Origin: an uncultured Candidatus Saccharibacteria bacterium
GTDB taxonomy: Bacteria; Patescibacteriota; Minisyncoccia; Phycocordibacterales; UBA9973
Assembly: GCA_964384645.1 (NCBI GenBank)
Contig: CAYLKL010000001.1
Span: forward strand, 70,856-134,371
Direction: 5' to 3'
Length of the DNA stretch: 63,516 nucleotides
Translations under genes and position numbers: made by a program
Part shown: one piece after another, positions 1,998 to 37,225 of the stretch
Layout: each line of letters opens with the position of its first letter
Position numbering within the stretch: the stretch's first letter is position 1
The notes under the pieces: generated by a model
Told to the model about the DNA's origin: nothing
The model's input: only the letters and a program-made list of their open reading frames with translations
Database searches by the model: none

Positions 1998-3089
1998 ATG
2001 GGAACGCGAACAGTTAAATACAACAAAGAAAGCAACTCGGCGTTTTCGAAAACGCTGAAGGCACGAGTAGATTATTACTTTGAAACCAACAATATCAAAA
2101 AAACTGGCGGAAAAGACTTACTCCTTAAGGCGATAATTCTACTAACTTTAGGGTTTACTACTTATGGATTGATTATTTATTACCTCTCCAATGGATACAT
2201 TCTAATTCCATTTATTCTGAATTTCTTTATGGGATTTATTCTTGCGGGTATTGGCTTTAATGTTATGCATGACGCAAGTCATAAATCTTTTTCTGAAAAA
2301 TCTTGGGTCAATGATCTTATGTTGCTAACACTTGAGCTTATGGGGGCTTGTTCTGTTTTTTGGGTAATAAAACATGTTTTTCTTCATCATAGTTTTGTAA
2401 ATGTTGAAGAATTAGATGACGATATCCATACAGGAATTTTAAGAATGGGCCCAGAGCAAAAACTAAAATGGTTCCATCCTTACATCCAAAGATATTGGCT
2501 TCCGGTAGTCATTTTATATGCCATGCTTTATATCTACTGGGTTTGGGTAAATGATTTTAAGAAATATTTTTCTAGAAAAATCCACAACTACGAAATCCCT
2601 AAAAAGAAATTTACATTTCAAATGCATTTTATTTTTTGGTTCAGCAAAATAAGTTATTTTTTCTGGACAATAGGTCTTCCTTGGATTGTAAGTGATCTTG
2701 GTACAGCTGTTTTGTGCTACCTTCTAATGTCTAGCACGACTGGAATCATTATTGCTCTTGTGTTTCAATTGGCACACATTGTTGAGGCTAGTAAATTTAC
2801 GAAATCCTTTGATGGAGAAATGTCTCATTCGTGGGAAGAACAGCAACTATTTGAAACTATTAATTTTCAAACCGATAGCAAAATACTACGCTTCTATATC
2901 GGTGGCCTTAATCATCAAATAGAGCACCATTTATTTCCAAATATTTCTCATATTCACTATCACAAGATCCAGCAAATCGTAGAAAAAGTATGTGAAGAGT
3001 TTGGAGTTCCTTATGTAAATTTATCCTTAACTAAAGCTATGAAATCGCACTTTCAAAAACTAAAACAGCTAAGTAAAAAATCTACTTAG
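1998..3089 (+). CDS. Membrane fatty-acid (acyl-CoA/acyl-lipid) desaturase, linoleoyl-CoA desaturase-like
   Basis: Three His boxes (HDASH, HVFLHH, HQIEHH), multiple TM segments, and a GGLNHQIEHHLFP motif. Confidence 0.9.
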   Translation: MGTRTVKYNKESNSAFSKTLKARVDYYFETNNIKKTGGKDLLLKAIILLTLGFTTYGLIIYYLSNGYILIPFILNFFMGFILAGIGFNVMHDASHKSFSEKSWVNDLMLLTLELMGACSVFWVIKHVFLHHSFVNVEELDDDIHTGILRMGPEQKLKWFHPYIQRYWLPVVILYAMLYIYWVWVNDFKKYFSRKIHNYEIPKKKFTFQMHFIFWFSKISYFFWTIGLPWIVSDLGTAVLCYLLMSSTTGIIIALVFQLAHIVEASKFTKSFDGEMSHSWEEQQLFETINFQTDSKILRFYIGGLNHQIEHHLFPNISHIHYHKIQQIVEKVCEEFGVPYVNLSLTKAMKSHFQKLKQLSKKST

Positions 3090-3090
3090 C

Positions 3091-3120
3091 AAAAACACCC
3101 CTTTCGTAGGGGTGTTTTTT
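3091..3120. terminator. Bidirectional intrinsic terminator
   Basis: aaaaacacccct-ttcgt-aggggtgttttt between convergent genes. Confidence 0.85.
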
Positions 3121-3132
3121 AATTAAGAAAAT

Positions 3133-3828
3133 CTAAAAAAGTAATTTCTGTGCAAAGTTATGAATTATAAACAAAGCTTCTTTCTGCTTTTCGTTTGCTA
3201 TCTTTTTTGTATTTTCAATTATATTTTCTAAAGTATTAAAATTTTGTTCTGTATTATCAAGTGGACTAATAGAAATATTGTAATTTTTATAAAGGTTTTC
3301 ATATTCTCGAATCACTCCCTCAAGTGGGTCTTTTTCATTTCTTGCTAACTTTTTAATTGTATTAAAAATAAAACAAATAAAAAAATCTATTCGATAATTT
3401 TTATCTACTGCTACTTTTTTAGAATTAAAAGTAGTCTCCCCTACAGGAAGATCAATTCCAAATAATTTCTTCCCGTCTTTAATTTTATACGCGCTTGCTA
3501 AGGGACATAAATATATATCTACAACCGAAATCACCTCCACTGTTTTAATAAGCATTGCCGTATGTACACCGTTGATTGGTGCATTCTGTGGCGCCTCACA
3601 GGAGTGAATTAAAGTCCCTAATCTTCTGTAGTTTTCAAATCGATTTTTATAGACCTCTTCATACTCTTCATCTTTAAATGTAAACCAAATATCTATGTCA
3701 CTATAAAAATCAGCATCTCCACGTGCAACTGACCCAAAAACATGAGCCTCGATTGCGCTATCAATAAATAGATTTCCTAACTTTTTTAAAATTTCCTCTC
3801 TTGTTGAAACTAGAACATATTTATCCAT
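3133..3828 (-). CDS. Nucleotidyltransferase (Pol-beta superfamily) with C-terminal helical domain
   Basis: FGSVARGDADFYSDIDIW matches the GS-x-D-x-D NTase motif. Confidence 0.8.
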   Translation of the reverse strand: MDKYVLVSTREEILKKLGNLFIDSAIEAHVFGSVARGDADFYSDIDIWFTFKDEEYEEVYKNRFENYRRLGTLIHSCEAPQNAPINGVHTAMLIKTVEVISVVDIYLCPLASAYKIKDGKKLFGIDLPVGETTFNSKKVAVDKNYRIDFFICFIFNTIKKLARNEKDPLEGVIREYENLYKNYNISISPLDNTEQNFNTLENIIENTKKIANEKQKEALFIIHNFAQKLLF

Positions 3829-3851: not shown

Positions 3852-4430
3852 TTATTCATTCTCTAAAATATCAGACGGTAATATTTTTATATTATCTGGA
3901 TTAAAAACTACATATTGATCTGTAAAATCGCTATCGTGATTTACTATTATTCCGTCATATTGCTCTTCTAATTGTTTTTTTGTAGCCCCACCATAATAAA
4001 GGTCCATTAGCTGTTGGTGGTTTTCTAAAACAAGAGGTTTGGTAATTTTAATAAAACAAGAAAATGTCTTAACATTTGATTCGTGATTGTTTAAATATTC
4101 TGTCCGATCTTTGGAAATCAAATCATTTTCTGAATCCTCTCTAGAAAGAAGTCTTTCAAATCGATCTGTGGAATCAATATAATTCTGCTTCATATAATCT
4201 ACGGTAGCTTTTCTATCTGAAGAAAAATAAACACCCCAGGAAGACCAATCACCCTCTTCTGAAGACTTAAGGTTTAAACCTTCAAAATTTTTAATAGTTG
4301 TTGCATGGAAGACCTTTAAAGGTCTTCCATTATTATCAACAACCACACTACCTTTAAACCATTTTTCAAAATCAGGATCTTCTTGTTTCTTTGTCTCTTT
4401 TATTTCTAACTCTTTATTCGCAAATTCCAT
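3852..4430 (-). CDS. ADP-ribosyltransferase-like protein resembling the ART-PolyVal domain
   Basis: WFKGSVVVDNNGRPLKVFHAT...GVYFS...ITKPL...YDGII...YVVFNPDNIK follows the recalled ART-PolyVal pattern. Not database-checked. Confidence 0.65.
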   Translation of the reverse strand: MEFANKELEIKETKKQEDPDFEKWFKGSVVVDNNGRPLKVFHATTIKNFEGLNLKSSEEGDWSSWGVYFSSDRKATVDYMKQNYIDSTDRFERLLSREDSENDLISKDRTEYLNNHESNVKTFSCFIKITKPLVLENHQQLMDLYYGGATKKQLEEQYDGIIVNHDSDFTDQYVVFNPDNIKILPSDILENE

Positions 4431-4528: not shown

Positions 4529-4688
4529 GAGAGAATTGATCCTTACAGGATCAGTGCAGGTTTCCCATTTTTTAAAAGCACAGCTTTTAAAAAATAAGGG
4601 AGAACCTTTTCAATTCTCTCGCGCAAGCAAAGCAGTTTGCTTGCTTAGTCACCCCATAAAAAAATCTCCCATTTGGGAGATTTTTTTA
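4529..4688. repeat. tRNA-His 3'-mirror element with 25-nt hairpin insert, plus terminator
   Basis: 4609-4620 ttcaattctctc + 25 nt (4621-4645) + tagtcaccccat is an inverted copy of the tRNA 3' end. Hairpin apex at 4671-4674. A second arm gagagaattga lies at 4529-4539. Confidence 0.85.
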
Positions 4689-4763
4689 TGGGGTGACTAG
4701 AGAGAATTGAACTCTCGATACCGGTTCCACAAACCGGAGTTTTACCACTAAACTATAGTCACC
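4689..4763 (-). tRNA. tRNA-His(GTG), with G-1 and encoded CCA
   Basis: Cloverleaf with anticodon arm ccggt-tt GTG ga-accgg and 8-bp acceptor including G-1:C73. Confidence 0.95.
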
Positions 4764-4806: not shown

Positions 4807-5799
4807 CTACCCCTTAAGGAGTCTTTTTTCCATAATCCTACTTACCAAATAAGCCACAACCAAAAGTCCGACATAAACAGAGATCAAGGTTTCAAATGGC
4901 CATGGAATATTCCTAATTGAACCCAAAATAAATATAAAAACCCAAGAAGTTATAGAAATCGCCCCTGAAAAGAAAGCCAAATGCTTCAAATGCTTTAGTT
5001 CTTTTTGATCATCTTTGTAATCCTCGTCAAAACTTATTTCAACAAGTCTTGGGGCGATCAAAAAATTCAACATAAATCCATTTATAACAAGAACAATTAC
5101 TGCAATAATTTTTGTAAGGAACTTTCCAGAATCAAGTAGTCTTTCAGACTGTGGCCAAAATAATCCTACACCAGTTACAATCAAGACAATAATTGCTGAC
5201 CAAATAATATTAGACAGGGTTCTCAAAGTGTCTGCTTCTTCATTTGAAATTCTCAAATCTTTTAGAAACTTAAAGAAAAACAAATCTGTAATAACCGCAC
5301 CGCCGAGCCCCAAAGAAACCCCCAAAACATGTAAGATAATCAAAGAGTCTCTATTCGCCAAAAACACACTTGCCATTGGGACATCTATAGAAAAAGCGGT
5401 TGCTATAAAGATAATAGTAGAAGCAATTGCAGAAAATACACACCAGGTACACCACTCTTTCAAAATAAATCCCTGAACACCGACCAAATACATTGAAAAC
5501 ATAAATGCCCCCAAAGAAACAGTGTAAATAGAAAAATAAATATGACTATCGTATGCGATTGGAAAAATTAAAAATAATAAATGAAAAACAATAACAGCTA
5601 AATAATACAATACCCCAACTATCTCATTTCTTATTCCGAGTGTTTTTGAATATGCGCTATGAATAACGCTATCACAATTTGCCCTCATTGGACAAACCAA
5701 AGGTTTTTTCTTTGTCTTTTTTATAAAAATATGACTAGCAATTGCTATACCAAAAACAGCGGCGCAAATTGCTAAAATATGAAAGAATTGACTATCCAT
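4807..5799 (-). CDS. Vitamin K epoxide reductase (VKOR) family protein fused to an additional multi-TM domain
   Basis: C-x5-C (CPMRANC), VIHSAYS, and the CxxC motif WCTWC, followed by about 5 more TM helices. Confidence 0.85.
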   Translation of the reverse strand: MDSQFFHILAICAAVFGIAIASHIFIKKTKKKPLVCPMRANCDSVIHSAYSKTLGIRNEIVGVLYYLAVIVFHLLFLIFPIAYDSHIYFSIYTVSLGAFMFSMYLVGVQGFILKEWCTWCVFSAIASTIIFIATAFSIDVPMASVFLANRDSLIILHVLGVSLGLGGAVITDLFFFKFLKDLRISNEEADTLRTLSNIIWSAIIVLIVTGVGLFWPQSERLLDSGKFLTKIIAVIVLVINGFMLNFLIAPRLVEISFDEDYKDDQKELKHLKHLAFFSGAISITSWVFIFILGSIRNIPWPFETLISVYVGLLVVAYLVSRIMEKRLLKG

Positions 5800-33640: not shown

Positions 33641-34330
33641 TTAAAAAATTTTTTTTAGAAGAAAATTTTCAAGAACAACGTTTGTGTCTGTTCCTTTAAA
33701 TCTTGAGTCACTCAAAAGAAAAGTTAATTCTTTATAAATTTCTTTTGTCCTATTTTGCCCGATAACATTTTGAGCATTCTTAAGACCGCTAACAACATAT
33801 GGATTTATTCCGTGATTAAATTTTTCTTTTTGACTTTGCTCATACAAATATAAATTTTTAAAAAACCACAACAATCCTCCGTGAATACTTTCGGCCGACT
33901 CCCCCATTTCTAAACTTTCTAAAAAATTTAACCAAACCTTTTTTTTATCACCCGCTGAAATTGCATTTGTAATTTTAAAAACTGCCGGAGTTTCTTTTTT
34001 TTCAAATTGAACTTTTTCTTTTACAGAAACAATTTCTGCTTTTAGTTTTTCTAAAACTTTTGTAAACACAACTGCCTCTTTACCAAAAAGAAAAAACTGG
34101 TTTGTGCTTTTGGAAATTGAGTCCAAAATATCTTTAGGAAATTCACTTGCATCGTCACCAGAAAAAACAACCTGCATGGTATCGCCGAATAAACTTTTTG
34201 AATCAAGATACACGCGCCAATTTGAATCATCAATTGCAAAAGAAATTGGCAGTGTTTTAATTTTGCCAATTTCTTTTAAAAGTTCGTTTCTCGCCAAATC
34301 TAAATTTTTTGAAATATAAATCTTTATCAT
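33641..34330 (-). CDS. DNA polymerase III delta subunit (HolA)-like
   Basis: SKSLFG, VFKITNAIS.GDKKKVW, and NPYVV. Confidence 0.65.
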   Translation of the reverse strand: MIKIYISKNLDLARNELLKEIGKIKTLPISFAIDDSNWRVYLDSKSLFGDTMQVVFSGDDASEFPKDILDSISKSTNQFFLFGKEAVVFTKVLEKLKAEIVSVKEKVQFEKKETPAVFKITNAISAGDKKKVWLNFLESLEMGESAESIHGGLLWFFKNLYLYEQSQKEKFNHGINPYVVSGLKNAQNVIGQNRTKEIYKELTFLLSDSRFKGTDTNVVLENFLLKKIF

Positions 34331-34797
34331 ATTCTAACTTTCTTTTTGTAGTGCCTATATGCTTCTCCGTATTTTTCTTCCAACATTTTCTCTTCTTTTT
34401 TTATAAAAACAATCTTTGTAAAAACAAAAGCAATAATAGAAGTAAGTGCAACAACAAAAGAGTTGTCTAATACGGCCATACCAGCACAAAGTAAAAATAC
34501 ACCCAAATGAGTCGGTGATCTATAAAACTTATACGGACCTGTCGCGAAACCTTGTTTAGAAATTTCTATATCATCATGACCTCTTTTTGACTTTGTTTTT
34601 CTTGAAGATTGCTGAGCCCAAAAAACCAAAATTGTACCCAAAATAAGCACAGTAAAGCCTAGATCATTTTTAACTTCTGGAAACAAATTTACATCCCAAA
34701 AAAGAGAAAGTAATAATCCAACCAAGATAAATAGAAAAAATACAAAATAAGACCGAGCAAGAACTTCGTGTATACTTTTGAATATTTTTTCTTCCAT
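34327..34797 (-). CDS. ICMT/phospholipid methyltransferase family membrane protein
   Basis: TGPYKFYRSPTHLG and EEKMLEEKYGEAYRHYKKKV. Confidence 0.8.
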   Translation of the reverse strand: MEEKIFKSIHEVLARSYFVFFLFILVGLLLSLFWDVNLFPEVKNDLGFTVLILGTILVFWAQQSSRKTKSKRGHDDIEISKQGFATGPYKFYRSPTHLGVFLLCAGMAVLDNSFVVALTSIIAFVFTKIVFIKKEEKMLEEKYGEAYRHYKKKVRI

Positions 34798-34801
34798 AAA
34801 A

Positions 34802-37225
34802 TTATCTTATCACAATCTCTTTTAGCTCGCCCAAGCTTTTGCCACTATACGCATTTACCACCAACGGGACGTCTGTTTTTAGTGCTAAAAACGATCTTGG
34901 AAGAACTTCTTCCATAGCTTTTTTGACTACACTTACAAGTATGTCTATCTCAGAATCATCTACCTCAAAAACTATTTCGTCATGGATTTGAAGTATTAAC
35001 TTTGCACTTTTTATTCCAGCTTTTCTTATATCTTCCATCGCAAAACGGATTGAAAGCTTCATAATATCAGCTGAAGTCCCCTGGATCGGTGCATTTGTCG
35101 CCATCCTTTCAGCAAAAGCTCGCAAGAAAGGAATTTTTGATTTTATATCTTTAAAAAACCTTTTTCTCCCAAACAAAGTCTCCGTGAAACCATTTTGACT
35201 TGCTTCTACTTTAATATTTTCTAGAAAGTTTTTTACTCCTGGAAGTTGCTTGAAATAGTTTTCATAAAATTCCTTTGCTTCTGCAGTTGTGCAACCAATA
35301 TTTTTTCTAAGTGCCAAAACCCCCATACCGTAAATAATTCCGAAATTTATAGTTTTAGCCTTGCGACGCATATCTTTTGTTACCTCTTCTTTTGGAATCC
35401 CAAAGATTTTCATGGCAACTGTTTCGTGAATATCCTCTCTGTTTTTAAAAATCGAAACCAAAACTTCTTCGTTTGATAAAATAGCGAGCGATCGTAAATC
35501 GATCTGACTATAGTCAAAACTCACGAGAGAAGTGTTTTTCTCTGATATAAAGCCTCGTCTTATTGCCATTCCCCTTTCGCCCTTTATGGGTAAGTTTTGC
35601 AAATTTGGATTTTGCGCCGAAAATCTTCCAGTAGTTGTCCCATGCTGTAAAAATTCAGCATGAAGTCTACCGTCGGACGCAACAAGTTTTGGAATAGTGT
35701 CGATATAAGTCGAAAGCAATTTTGCGAGCTCTCTGTGTTTTAAAATATCTGCAATTATTTCATGCTCTTCTTCAAGACTCTCGAGAACTTCTTGTTTAGT
35801 TGAAAAATTACCAGATTTACCTACCGCACCCTTAGGTTTAAGGCCTAAATCTTTAAACAAGACTTCTGCCAACTGCTTTGGCGAATCGACATTAAATTCT
35901 CGTCCTGCAAATTTATAAATCCTACTCTTTAGTTCATTTAATTCTTTTGTATATTCAACAGAAAGATCTTCTAAGTATTTAGTGTTTACTTTGATACCGT
36001 TTTCAGTCATCTTGAAAATATCATCAATTATCGGCTCTTCTATTTCTTTAAATACAATTTCATTTTTCTTATCTTTCTTTATTTCTTCTTCAAAATATTT
36101 CTTTGCTTCATCCAGTGTTTTTCTCTTTGACCAAAACAACAAATCTTCTCCTGTAGAATTTGTCCTCTCAGAATCTATAACCCAAGCAATAATTGATGTT
36201 CGCAAAATATCTTCTCTTTTGTATTCCACACTAGTTTGCGGATTTATTTCTTCCACAGACAACTCTTTGTCTACACCATTTTTTCCATTTTTTATTTGCT
36301 CCCCGTTGTGAATCACTTCTCGAACTTTACCAACGAGACTCCTAAACTCAAGTTCAGAAAAAAGTTTTTCTATTTTTTCTTTTGCTGCACCGTGCGGAAA
36401 TCTCTCTGGTAAAACAAAATCAATCGGAGCATCTCGCCTAATTGTCGCAAGTGTTTTTGAAAAAATTGCCTCGTCCTCTCCTTCGGTAATCAGATTTTTA
36501 ACACGTAAAGTAAGCCCCGCTTTATCGAGTGCACCAGGATCTTTTTTTATTTTCTTATACATCTCCTCCAGTGTTCCAAATGTTTGTATCAAATTTGTAG
36601 CTGTCTTTTCACCAATCCCCCTAATTCCTGGAATATTGTCTGACGAATCACCCGCAAGGCCTTTGTAGTCAGGAACGTGTTTAGGGAGAAATCCATATCG
36701 AGACATAACATCTTCTTCCCCATACATTGCCACCTCTCCAATTCCTTTTTTGAAAGTAAAAACCTTTACTCTATTTTTTACAACAAGTTGGAATGTGTCC
36801 ATATCCCCCGAAGCGATAACTATTTCAACATCCTTCATTTCCTTATTTTCAAGGACTTGGTGCACAATTGTTCCCAAAATATCATCCGCCTCAAAACCCT
36901 CAGCTTCAAGAATTGGTATATGAAAAGCATCAAAAATCTCCCGAGATTTTATAATTTGTGCCACAAGATCGTCATCAGTCTTTTTGCGTCCCGCCTTGTA
37001 GCCGTCATATGCCTCATGCCTAAAAGTCTTTTTTGGAAGGTCGTAAGCCGCCACCATATAGTCAGGCTTTAGATCCGCTATTATCTTCATCAGCATATTG
37101 GACAGGCCGTATAGTGCCCCTGTGGGCGTCCCGTCGCCACTCTTGAAGTCAGGAACAGCATGATAGGCGCGGTGAATAATCGCATGAGAATCGAAGAGTA
37201 TAAGTCTGTCCTTTTTGGTCGCCAT
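34802..37225 (-). CDS. polA: DNA polymerase I with reduced 3'-5' exonuclease domain
   Basis: 5' nuclease (FEADD, GDSSDNIPGI) and polymerase motifs (DYSQIDLR, AKTINFGIIYG, QIHDE). Confidence 0.96.
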   Translation of the reverse strand: MATKKDRLILFDSHAIIHRAYHAVPDFKSGDGTPTGALYGLSNMLMKIIADLKPDYMVAAYDLPKKTFRHEAYDGYKAGRKKTDDDLVAQIIKSREIFDAFHIPILEAEGFEADDILGTIVHQVLENKEMKDVEIVIASGDMDTFQLVVKNRVKVFTFKKGIGEVAMYGEEDVMSRYGFLPKHVPDYKGLAGDSSDNIPGIRGIGEKTATNLIQTFGTLEEMYKKIKKDPGALDKAGLTLRVKNLITEGEDEAIFSKTLATIRRDAPIDFVLPERFPHGAAKEKIEKLFSELEFRSLVGKVREVIHNGEQIKNGKNGVDKELSVEEINPQTSVEYKREDILRTSIIAWVIDSERTNSTGEDLLFWSKRKTLDEAKKYFEEEIKKDKKNEIVFKEIEEPIIDDIFKMTENGIKVNTKYLEDLSVEYTKELNELKSRIYKFAGREFNVDSPKQLAEVLFKDLGLKPKGAVGKSGNFSTKQEVLESLEEEHEIIADILKHRELAKLLSTYIDTIPKLVASDGRLHAEFLQHGTTTGRFSAQNPNLQNLPIKGERGMAIRRGFISEKNTSLVSFDYSQIDLRSLAILSNEEVLVSIFKNREDIHETVAMKIFGIPKEEVTKDMRRKAKTINFGIIYGMGVLALRKNIGCTTAEAKEFYENYFKQLPGVKNFLENIKVEASQNGFTETLFGRKRFFKDIKSKIPFLRAFAERMATNAPIQGTSADIMKLSIRFAMEDIRKAGIKSAKLILQIHDEIVFEVDDSEIDILVSVVKKAMEEVLPRSFLALKTDVPLVVNAYSGKSLGELKEIVIR

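Follow-up and report, generated by a model that had tools for sequence, protein, structure and literature searches.

The DNA considered here, called the window, is a stretch of 63,516 nucleotides (nt) from an uncultured Candidatus Saccharibacteria bacterium (assembly GCA_964384645.1, contig CAYLKL010000001.1, positions 70,856 to 134,371 of the forward strand). Near its start, at 1998-3089 on the plus strand, lies a gene for a membrane di-iron desaturase of 363 amino acids, of the front-end or Delta6-FADS-like kind and without a cytochrome b5 domain. The question taken up here is what such an enzyme might do in a bacterium of the Candidate Phyla Radiation (CPR) whose cell makes no fatty acids.

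Divergent from the desaturase gene, at 1-1899 on the minus strand, is a gene that runs past the start of the window and encodes an NHL-repeat beta-propeller protein, secreted or anchored in a membrane (Pfam NHL, E 2.8e-30). The same divergent pairing recurs in two other assemblies (L159, 62% identity; L160, 58% identity). The two genes are separated by a 98-bp regulatory region (1900-1997) that is conserved in these assemblies, being 78-81% identical to their spacers. Here, an extended -10 promoter-like element, TGTTAAAAT, is read from the sequence at 1962-1970 on the plus strand, 27 nt 5' of the ATG. It appears as TGGTAAAAT in L159 and L160, and TGnTAnAnT-like elements stand 30-45 nt before the start codon in many CPR orthologues. 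A scan of the plus strand of the spacer (1900-1997) for the sigma-70 consensus gave no full -35/-10 match; the extended -10 went uncalled because no -35 element lies at 16-18 nt. In the more distant pair, that of the window and L160, the spacer is 78% identical, compared with 62% for the desaturase coding DNA and 66% for the NHL gene. That a spacer is better conserved than both of the coding regions it separates suggests a shared regulatory region extending beyond the -10 element.

On its other side, the desaturase gene is followed at 3096-3120 (plus strand) by an intrinsic terminator, CACCCC-TTTCGTA-GGGGTG and then T6, placed between it and a convergent downstream gene. Because an A-run lies upstream of the hairpin, the terminator probably works in both directions and serves both convergent genes. 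Thus, the gene does have a promoter region and a terminator of its own, as the earlier note on this DNA had it.

The protein matches Pfam PF00487 (FA_desaturase) over residues 72-340, with E 4.9e-32 and 112.1 bits (cut-off 29.7). Its three His boxes, which the same note had called intact, are indeed so. The first, HDASH (residues 91-95; 2268-2282, plus strand), sits where the second membrane helix ends. The second is HVFLHH (residues 126-131; 2373-2390, plus strand). The third, QIEHH (residues 307-311; 2916-2930, plus strand), has Gln in first place and lies inside GGLNHQIEHHLFPNISHIHY. In an alignment of 120 homologues the box residues are invariant (H91, D92 and H95; H126, H130 and H131; Q307, H310 and H311), and so are H260, H318 and H320. 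The boxes keep the canonical order and spacing of di-iron enzymes (HX3H, HX3HH, QX2HH).

An AlphaFold2 model, built from the same alignment, has a mean predicted local distance difference test (pLDDT) value of 93.8 and a predicted template-modelling (pTM) score of 0.92. It consists of two long helical hairpins and a helical cap. When compared by Foldseek with known structures, the model comes closest to 8xks_K and 8xqw_M, two chains of membrane desaturase-like type (TM 0.60); next are AlkB, an alkane hydroxylase (8sbb, TM 0.42), and stearoyl-CoA desaturase 1, SCD1 (4ymk, TM 0.36). Such a fold is what a membrane di-iron enzyme should have. Hydrophobic helices pair at residues ~41-91 and ~166-262, and the model and the hydropathy together are read as two hairpins making four membrane spans. 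A sequence search of the PDB matched no chain, either with the single protein or with the 120-sequence profile.

Comparison with an orthologue 85% identical gives a ratio of nonsynonymous to synonymous substitution (dN/dS) of 0.087, at a dS of 0.94, and so shows strong purifying selection on the gene. Its guanine plus cytosine (GC) content of 0.33 is that of the genome, and its composition is therefore native. With the metal ligands all kept, the coding sequence constrained and the model confident, the enzyme looks active, rather than inactive as the earlier note had allowed that it might be.

The class of the desaturase is told from its third box. Replacement of the first His of this box by Gln (QXXHH) is reportedly the signature of front-end desaturases. 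Homologues on contigs of giant-virus metagenome-assembled genomes (MAGs; L172-L201), ~30% identical over the desaturase domain (E ~1e-30), have the boxes HDANH, HVLLHH and QIEHHLFP behind an N-terminal cytochrome b5 domain with its HPGG motif (Pfam Cyt-b5 plus FA_desaturase). Front-end desaturases of the eukaryote type are classically built as such a fusion. The Gln-type third box, together with the homology to b5-fused desaturases having the same boxes, places the window protein by sequence in the front-end (Delta4/5/6-like) class, among those members that, like the cyanobacterial DesD, lack the b5 domain. Pfam finds no Cyt-b5 domain in the protein. The cyanobacterial front-end members, DesD included, are also without one, so that its absence does not exclude membership in the class. 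In the annotation of the Joint Genome Institute (JGI), the Bacteroidota homologues go by the name of linoleoyl-CoA desaturase, under the KEGG orthology (KO) entry for Delta6. By analogy with the class, the double bond would be expected close to the chain's carboxyl end, at a Delta4/5/6-like position.

Two other identities do not fit. The boxes of Delta9 desaturases of the SCD/DesC type (HRYxxH, HRxHH, HNxHH) are not in the window protein; they sit in separate, short genes of its relatives. Nor is a carotenoid hydroxylase or ketolase (CrtR/CrtW) indicated: the only NCBIfam match, to the CrtR carotene hydroxylase model NF045688, reaches 24.3 bits where the cut-off is 475.

The earlier note took the DNA to be of CPR origin, and the genome agrees. 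It comprises 726 kb in 21 contigs, with 34-36% GC, and is 95.8% complete with 0.3% contamination. The contig around the desaturase gene is 134 kb long, has an even GC content of 34% throughout and carries tRNAs and CPR-type genes. The source genome shares its GTDB family with genome G077, whose desaturase is deposited at NCBI as QQR76536.1 from a Candidatus Nomurabacteria bacterium and is identical to P0096 at 352 of 353 positions.

The same note had supposed that fatty-acid synthesis is lacking, and this, too, was found. Profile searches of the genome returned no ketoacyl synthase (KAS, PF00109) and no acyl carrier protein (ACP, PF00550), FabZ, FabI, FabD and Acc not having been searched separately; as controls, the two profiles were positive in 14 and 11 genomes, respectively. 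KAS is absent from all 201 related genomes. Nor does the genome hold a PlsC-type acyltransferase (PF01553), for which control genomes were positive. A scan of its six-frame open reading frames, at the level of motifs only, gave no signature of PlsY, CdsA, a CDP-alcohol transferase, PLD or an AMP-binding enzyme. These absences fit the published picture of CPR cells, which have ordinary lipid membranes and no lipid synthesis (Probst 2020, PMC7242380).

What, then, would the desaturase act upon? The sequences make it rather likely that it is a functional, O2-dependent, b5-less front-end enzyme working as an acyl-lipid desaturase on scavenged membrane lipids. Its substrate would be an acyl chain that reached the cell already esterified, in a membrane glycerolipid or lysolipid acquired from some other organism. 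A lipid-bound substrate is proposed because the genome has no fatty-acid synthesis, no ACP, no PlsC-type acyltransferase and, at motif level, no recognisable acyl-CoA synthetase. The His and Gln residues of the boxes would hold a di-iron centre at the cytoplasmic face of the membrane. There, two electrons and O2 would be used to remove two hydrogens from the chain and leave a cis double bond near its carboxyl end. A cell with no choice over the acyl chains of its membrane could in this way tune that membrane's fluidity or curvature. Of the two roles proposed by the earlier note, the remodelling of scavenged acyl chains is thus the best reading, given the lack of fatty-acid synthesis, ACP and PlsC. 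The other, an alteration of host membranes, is unsupported: the protein is an ordinary polytopic one, located in the membrane of the cell itself.

Several points weigh against this explanation. The closest characterised enzymes are only ~30-40% identical to the window protein. Because no closer characterised enzyme and no sequence match in the PDB exist, both the substrate and the regiochemistry rest on analogy with the class. Further, the front-end class includes Delta8 desaturases that act on sphingolipids. The enzyme might, of course, have the same fold and class and a different substrate or chemistry, desaturating or hydroxylating a sphingoid base, a lysolipid, the tail of a quinone or other isoprenoid, or some other scavenged lipid. 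The PF00487 superfamily holds hydroxylases, ketolases and alkane monooxygenases (PMC5037126), and a protein with no close characterised relative, whose sole NCBIfam match is a weak one to CrtR, could be any of these. That match is, however, a small fraction of its cut-off. The pattern of the boxes and the motif GGLNxQxEHHLFP agree with the front-end desaturases of fatty acyl chains, and the nearest large group consists of aerobic Bacteroidota proteins assigned by JGI to the Delta6 KO. Such another substrate is therefore clearly the less likely case, and one to be kept in view.

A different objection comes from names. The NCBI Prokaryotic Genome Annotation Pipeline (PGAP) calls the orthologues QQR76536.1 and MBP6854996.1 acyl-CoA desaturase, and the JGI name for homologues also speaks of a CoA substrate. 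If these names were apt, free fatty acids would be activated to CoA thioesters, desaturated as such and then built into lipids. Both, however, are generic labels of the family. The activating step would call for an acyl-CoA synthetase, whose AMP-binding signature the six-frame reading frames lack, and with no PlsC-type acyltransferase, PlsY motif or ACP the cell would have no way to install an acyl-CoA product in its membrane. This route is improbable.

The supply of electrons also counts against an acyl-lipid desaturase in this cell. Profile searches of the genome found no cytochrome b5, no 2Fe-2S ferredoxin (PF00111) and no flavodoxin (PF00258), and its six-frame open reading frames of at least 40 amino acids contain neither a 4Fe-4S motif (CxxCxxCxxxC) nor a rubredoxin motif. 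An acyl-lipid desaturase would thus find none of its known donors here. The earlier note had seen neither a reductase nor a cytochrome b5 partner in the window; the neighbourhood of the gene indeed has no gene for either, and the gap in canonical donors holds for the whole genome. Nor would a fused donor fill it, to judge from a 476-amino-acid form of the desaturase in genome G055, which has no additional Pfam domain and so no fused donor domain.

The genome does encode one flavoprotein of the FNR type (P0121; C2:33336-34046), of 237 amino acids with the domains FAD_binding_6 and NAD_binding_1; its neighbour on contig C2 is a PNPOx-like protein. The FNR-type protein most resembles the reductase half of a flavohaemoglobin. 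If this were the desaturase's reductase, the two genes might be expected to travel together. Across the 201 genomes, however, FNR-like matches occur in 6 of the 38 with a long-type desaturase and in 48 of the 163 others, which is a further point against the explanation. With no positive association, and with two close orthologues in genomes that have no desaturase, the protein was rejected as a dedicated partner. This stand-alone FNR-type reductase belongs to a small cluster (C2:32958-34046 of the source genome, G000; L021/L022) together with the PNPOx-like protein, which binds flavin, and a regulator of the ArsR type. The open reading frames that contain the FNR-like module are ~500 amino acids long in most relatives.

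A redox partner identified by synteny was likewise rejected: in 39 loci from CPR and 80 from Bacteroidota, the desaturase gene has neither a ferredoxin nor a reductase as a conserved neighbour. What is conserved around it in CPR is of a housekeeping kind (HU, RNase Y-like, CCA/polyA polymerase, YraN-like). The conserved neighbours among the Bacteroidota, as read from the sequences with no family search, are aminotransferase, methyltransferase and aldehyde-dehydrogenase-like genes, also of a housekeeping type.

One other flavoprotein does adjoin the desaturase. In three lineages (L116, L117 and L121, all of one genus; L147; and the distant L151), the gene directly beside it encodes an HI0933-like FAD protein (Pfam E 1e-73). 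These genes lie at L116:7980-9230, L117:5659-6909, L121:5712-6962, L147:5432-6691 and L151:8044-9339, and are convergent with the desaturase in four loci and divergent from it in one. The source genome has a homologue, 45% identical, at C6:18681-19862, outside the window. The HI0933-like protein is a candidate either for the electron donor or for an enzyme that modifies the product. The candidate donors are, then, the FNR-like flavoprotein on C2, the HI0933-like flavoprotein on C6 and thioredoxin reductase (C8:20388-21389). It may tentatively be suggested, at a probability we would set low, that the Patescibacteria of this family run their desaturases on scavenged lipids with a non-canonical electron supply, in which a flavoprotein reduces the di-iron centre directly or through a carrier. 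The HI0933-like protein is the best lead for such a supply, because it stands beside the desaturase in three lineages and is encoded in the source genome.

The lack of a canonical donor may also be taken to mean that the gene does nothing in this cell. It might be a Bacteroidota fragment placed in the wrong genome bin, or a donor-less relic without turnover. The missing donor speaks for the second of these. For the first speaks the raw identity of the window protein to Bacteroidota proteins (34-43%), which matches its identity to CPR proteins (28-43%). Against both stands the history of the gene.

Genes of PF00487 are present in 72 of the 201 related genomes, comprising 60 of the 121 in the family and 12 of the 80 in the rest of the order. 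In a phylum-wide sample of 401 genomes, 44 have a match above the cut-off. The gene is no exception in its lineage: such genes occur in about half of the family and are scattered through the phylum. The relatives have two kinds, a long front-end kind (~340-400 amino acids, 38 genomes) and a short Delta9 kind (243-275 amino acids). Five genomes have both (G004, G047, G064, G077 and G087); the source genome has the long type only. Short genes of the Delta9/SCD type, with the boxes HRYxxH, HRxHH and HNxHH, are carried by many of the relatives and are seen at L154-L158 (in G077, G003, G007, G041 and G064).

Two trees were made, a quick one of 122 rows and a careful one of 69. Both put the window protein in a clade of 13-14 CPR sequences and four unlabelled metagenome proteins, with no Bacteroidota. 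The support for this clade is 98 in the quick tree, by the Shimodaira-Hasegawa-like approximate likelihood-ratio test (SH-aLRT), and 100/98 in the careful one. The earlier note had proposed a phylogeny against Bacteroidota; no nesting among them was seen. A recent transfer from Bacteroidota is rejected by the CPR-only clade in both trees and by the native composition of the gene. These results, together with the long contig of uniform GC, the synteny with the NHL gene in two other assemblies, the low dN/dS and the presence of the family in over a third of the relatives, largely refute a gene that does nothing in this cell, which has become a very remote prospect.

The order of genes points in the same direction. 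In many genera of the family (L119-L150, ~15 loci), the desaturase stands within the order ClpP, RNase Y-like, HU, desaturase, YraN-like, CCA/polyA polymerase. A context conserved in deep-branching members of the family argues for long vertical inheritance, and the position between ClpP and the CCA-adding enzyme is probably ancestral for the family's desaturase. In the clade to which the window protein belongs, contexts are varied and lie away from this order.

Other sources were searched as well. In a metagenome scan all 80 loci were Bacteroidota-like, at most 44% identical to the window protein, and had no HI0933-like or FNR-like neighbour. Viral contigs yielded distant homologues only; those without b5, on L168-L171, are 34-38% identical to the window protein. 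Transfer by phage was considered on these data and left no sign. As an observation in its own right, many giant-virus MAGs (IMG/VR, L172-L201) encode b5-fused front-end desaturases with the box QIEHHLFP.

Known systems help to place the acyl-lipid explanation. The DesD protein of Synechocystis sp. PCC 6803 is a cyanobacterial acyl-lipid Delta6 desaturase (Reddy 1993; PMC9775110). Its count starts at the carboxyl end, and it is able to put a first double bond into lipid-bound chains that are saturated (PMC9775110). Like the window protein, it is a bacterial front-end membrane desaturase of ~360 amino acids with three His boxes and no b5 domain, and for both a lipid-bound acyl substrate is predicted. 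The third-box region, GGLNHQxxHHLFPNIxHIHY, is presumably common to the two. DesD differs in receiving its electrons from ferredoxin, while the source genome of the window encodes none and its cell makes no fatty acids.

The Bacteroidota homologues (from Chitinophagaceae, Flavobacteriaceae and Cytophagales) are alike at 34-43% identity over the full length and have the same length, boxes and topology. They fall, however, in clades separate from the CPR clade of the window, and their hosts are aerobic heterotrophs, in which type II fatty-acid synthesis and ferredoxins or flavodoxins are to be expected. None of these homologues is known to have been characterised by experiment. The eukaryote-type b5-fused enzymes (FADS2, or the Delta6 desaturase of borage) share the pattern HDxxH, HxxxHH, QIEHHLFP. 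These carry a donor domain of their own (Cyt-b5, HPGG), whereas the window protein has no such domain and its genome no free b5.

The Delta5 acyl-lipid Des of Bacillus subtilis offers a looser parallel. It is a bacterial phospholipid desaturase serving adaptation to cold and of fluidity, from a stand-alone gene with its own regulation, and to this the window gene may be likened. Des belongs to a methyl-end-like cluster and has six membrane helices (Li et al. 2016, PMC5037126), and is for this reason an analogue, not the closest relative; the window protein is of the front-end class and has four predicted spans. Ferredoxin and flavodoxins are reported as the donors of Des (Chazarreta-Cifre 2011). 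The Delta9 desaturases (SCD/DesC-type), finally, have the Pfam family in common with the window protein and differ from it in all three boxes.

Elsewhere in the window some genes deserve mention. Between the desaturase and tRNA-His lie, in tandem on the minus strand, a nucleotidyltransferase (NTP_transf_2, 3133-3828) and an ART-PolyVal ADP-ribosyltransferase (3852-4430). They may form a toxin/antitoxin-like or defence-like pair, and the segment beside the tRNA may be variable. Short pieces of 4533-4689 are found again on four other contigs. At 4807-5799 (minus strand) a domain of the vitamin K epoxide reductase family (VKOR) is fused to a CopD-like membrane domain. Since VKOR needs a quinone, which so reduced a genome probably cannot make, this protein, too, may need a lipid cofactor obtained by scavenging. 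In G001, a genome of the same genus, the contig (C1:47509-49056) ends 47 nt past the block of tRNA-His and VKOR, which is 85% identical to the window.

Further along, at 34327-34797 on the minus strand, is a membrane methyltransferase of the PEMT/ICMT superfamily (Pfam PEMT, E 2.2e-11; an NCBIfam match to isoprenylcysteine methyltransferase is below threshold), just downstream of polA (34802-37225) and in the same orientation. The earlier note had named it as a second possible lipid-modifying enzyme. The family is the one supposed, and the protein may modify lipids or prenyl groups.

As an enzyme, the window protein is an ordinary addition to a known class, and its genes have already been annotated automatically by NCBI and JGI. 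A search of full-text literature found no paper on membrane fatty-acid desaturases in CPR bacteria or Patescibacteria. Two things are under-reported here, namely how frequent desaturases are in a lineage without fatty-acid synthesis and that their electron donor is missing.

These bear on how CPR bacteria obtain and maintain their membranes without lipid synthesis. Vertical retention of the gene in about half of the family, and in about a tenth of the sampled Patescibacteria, suggests that many such cells edit the lipids of their hosts rather than simply wear them. A desaturase that depends on O2 suggests, in turn, a life where O2 is available. Should a non-canonical electron supply prove true, the front-end enzymes, with the Delta9 enzymes of some relatives, would give CPR membranes double-bond positions unlike those of their hosts. 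Such positions would then be a chemical signature by which CPR lipids could be traced in nature.

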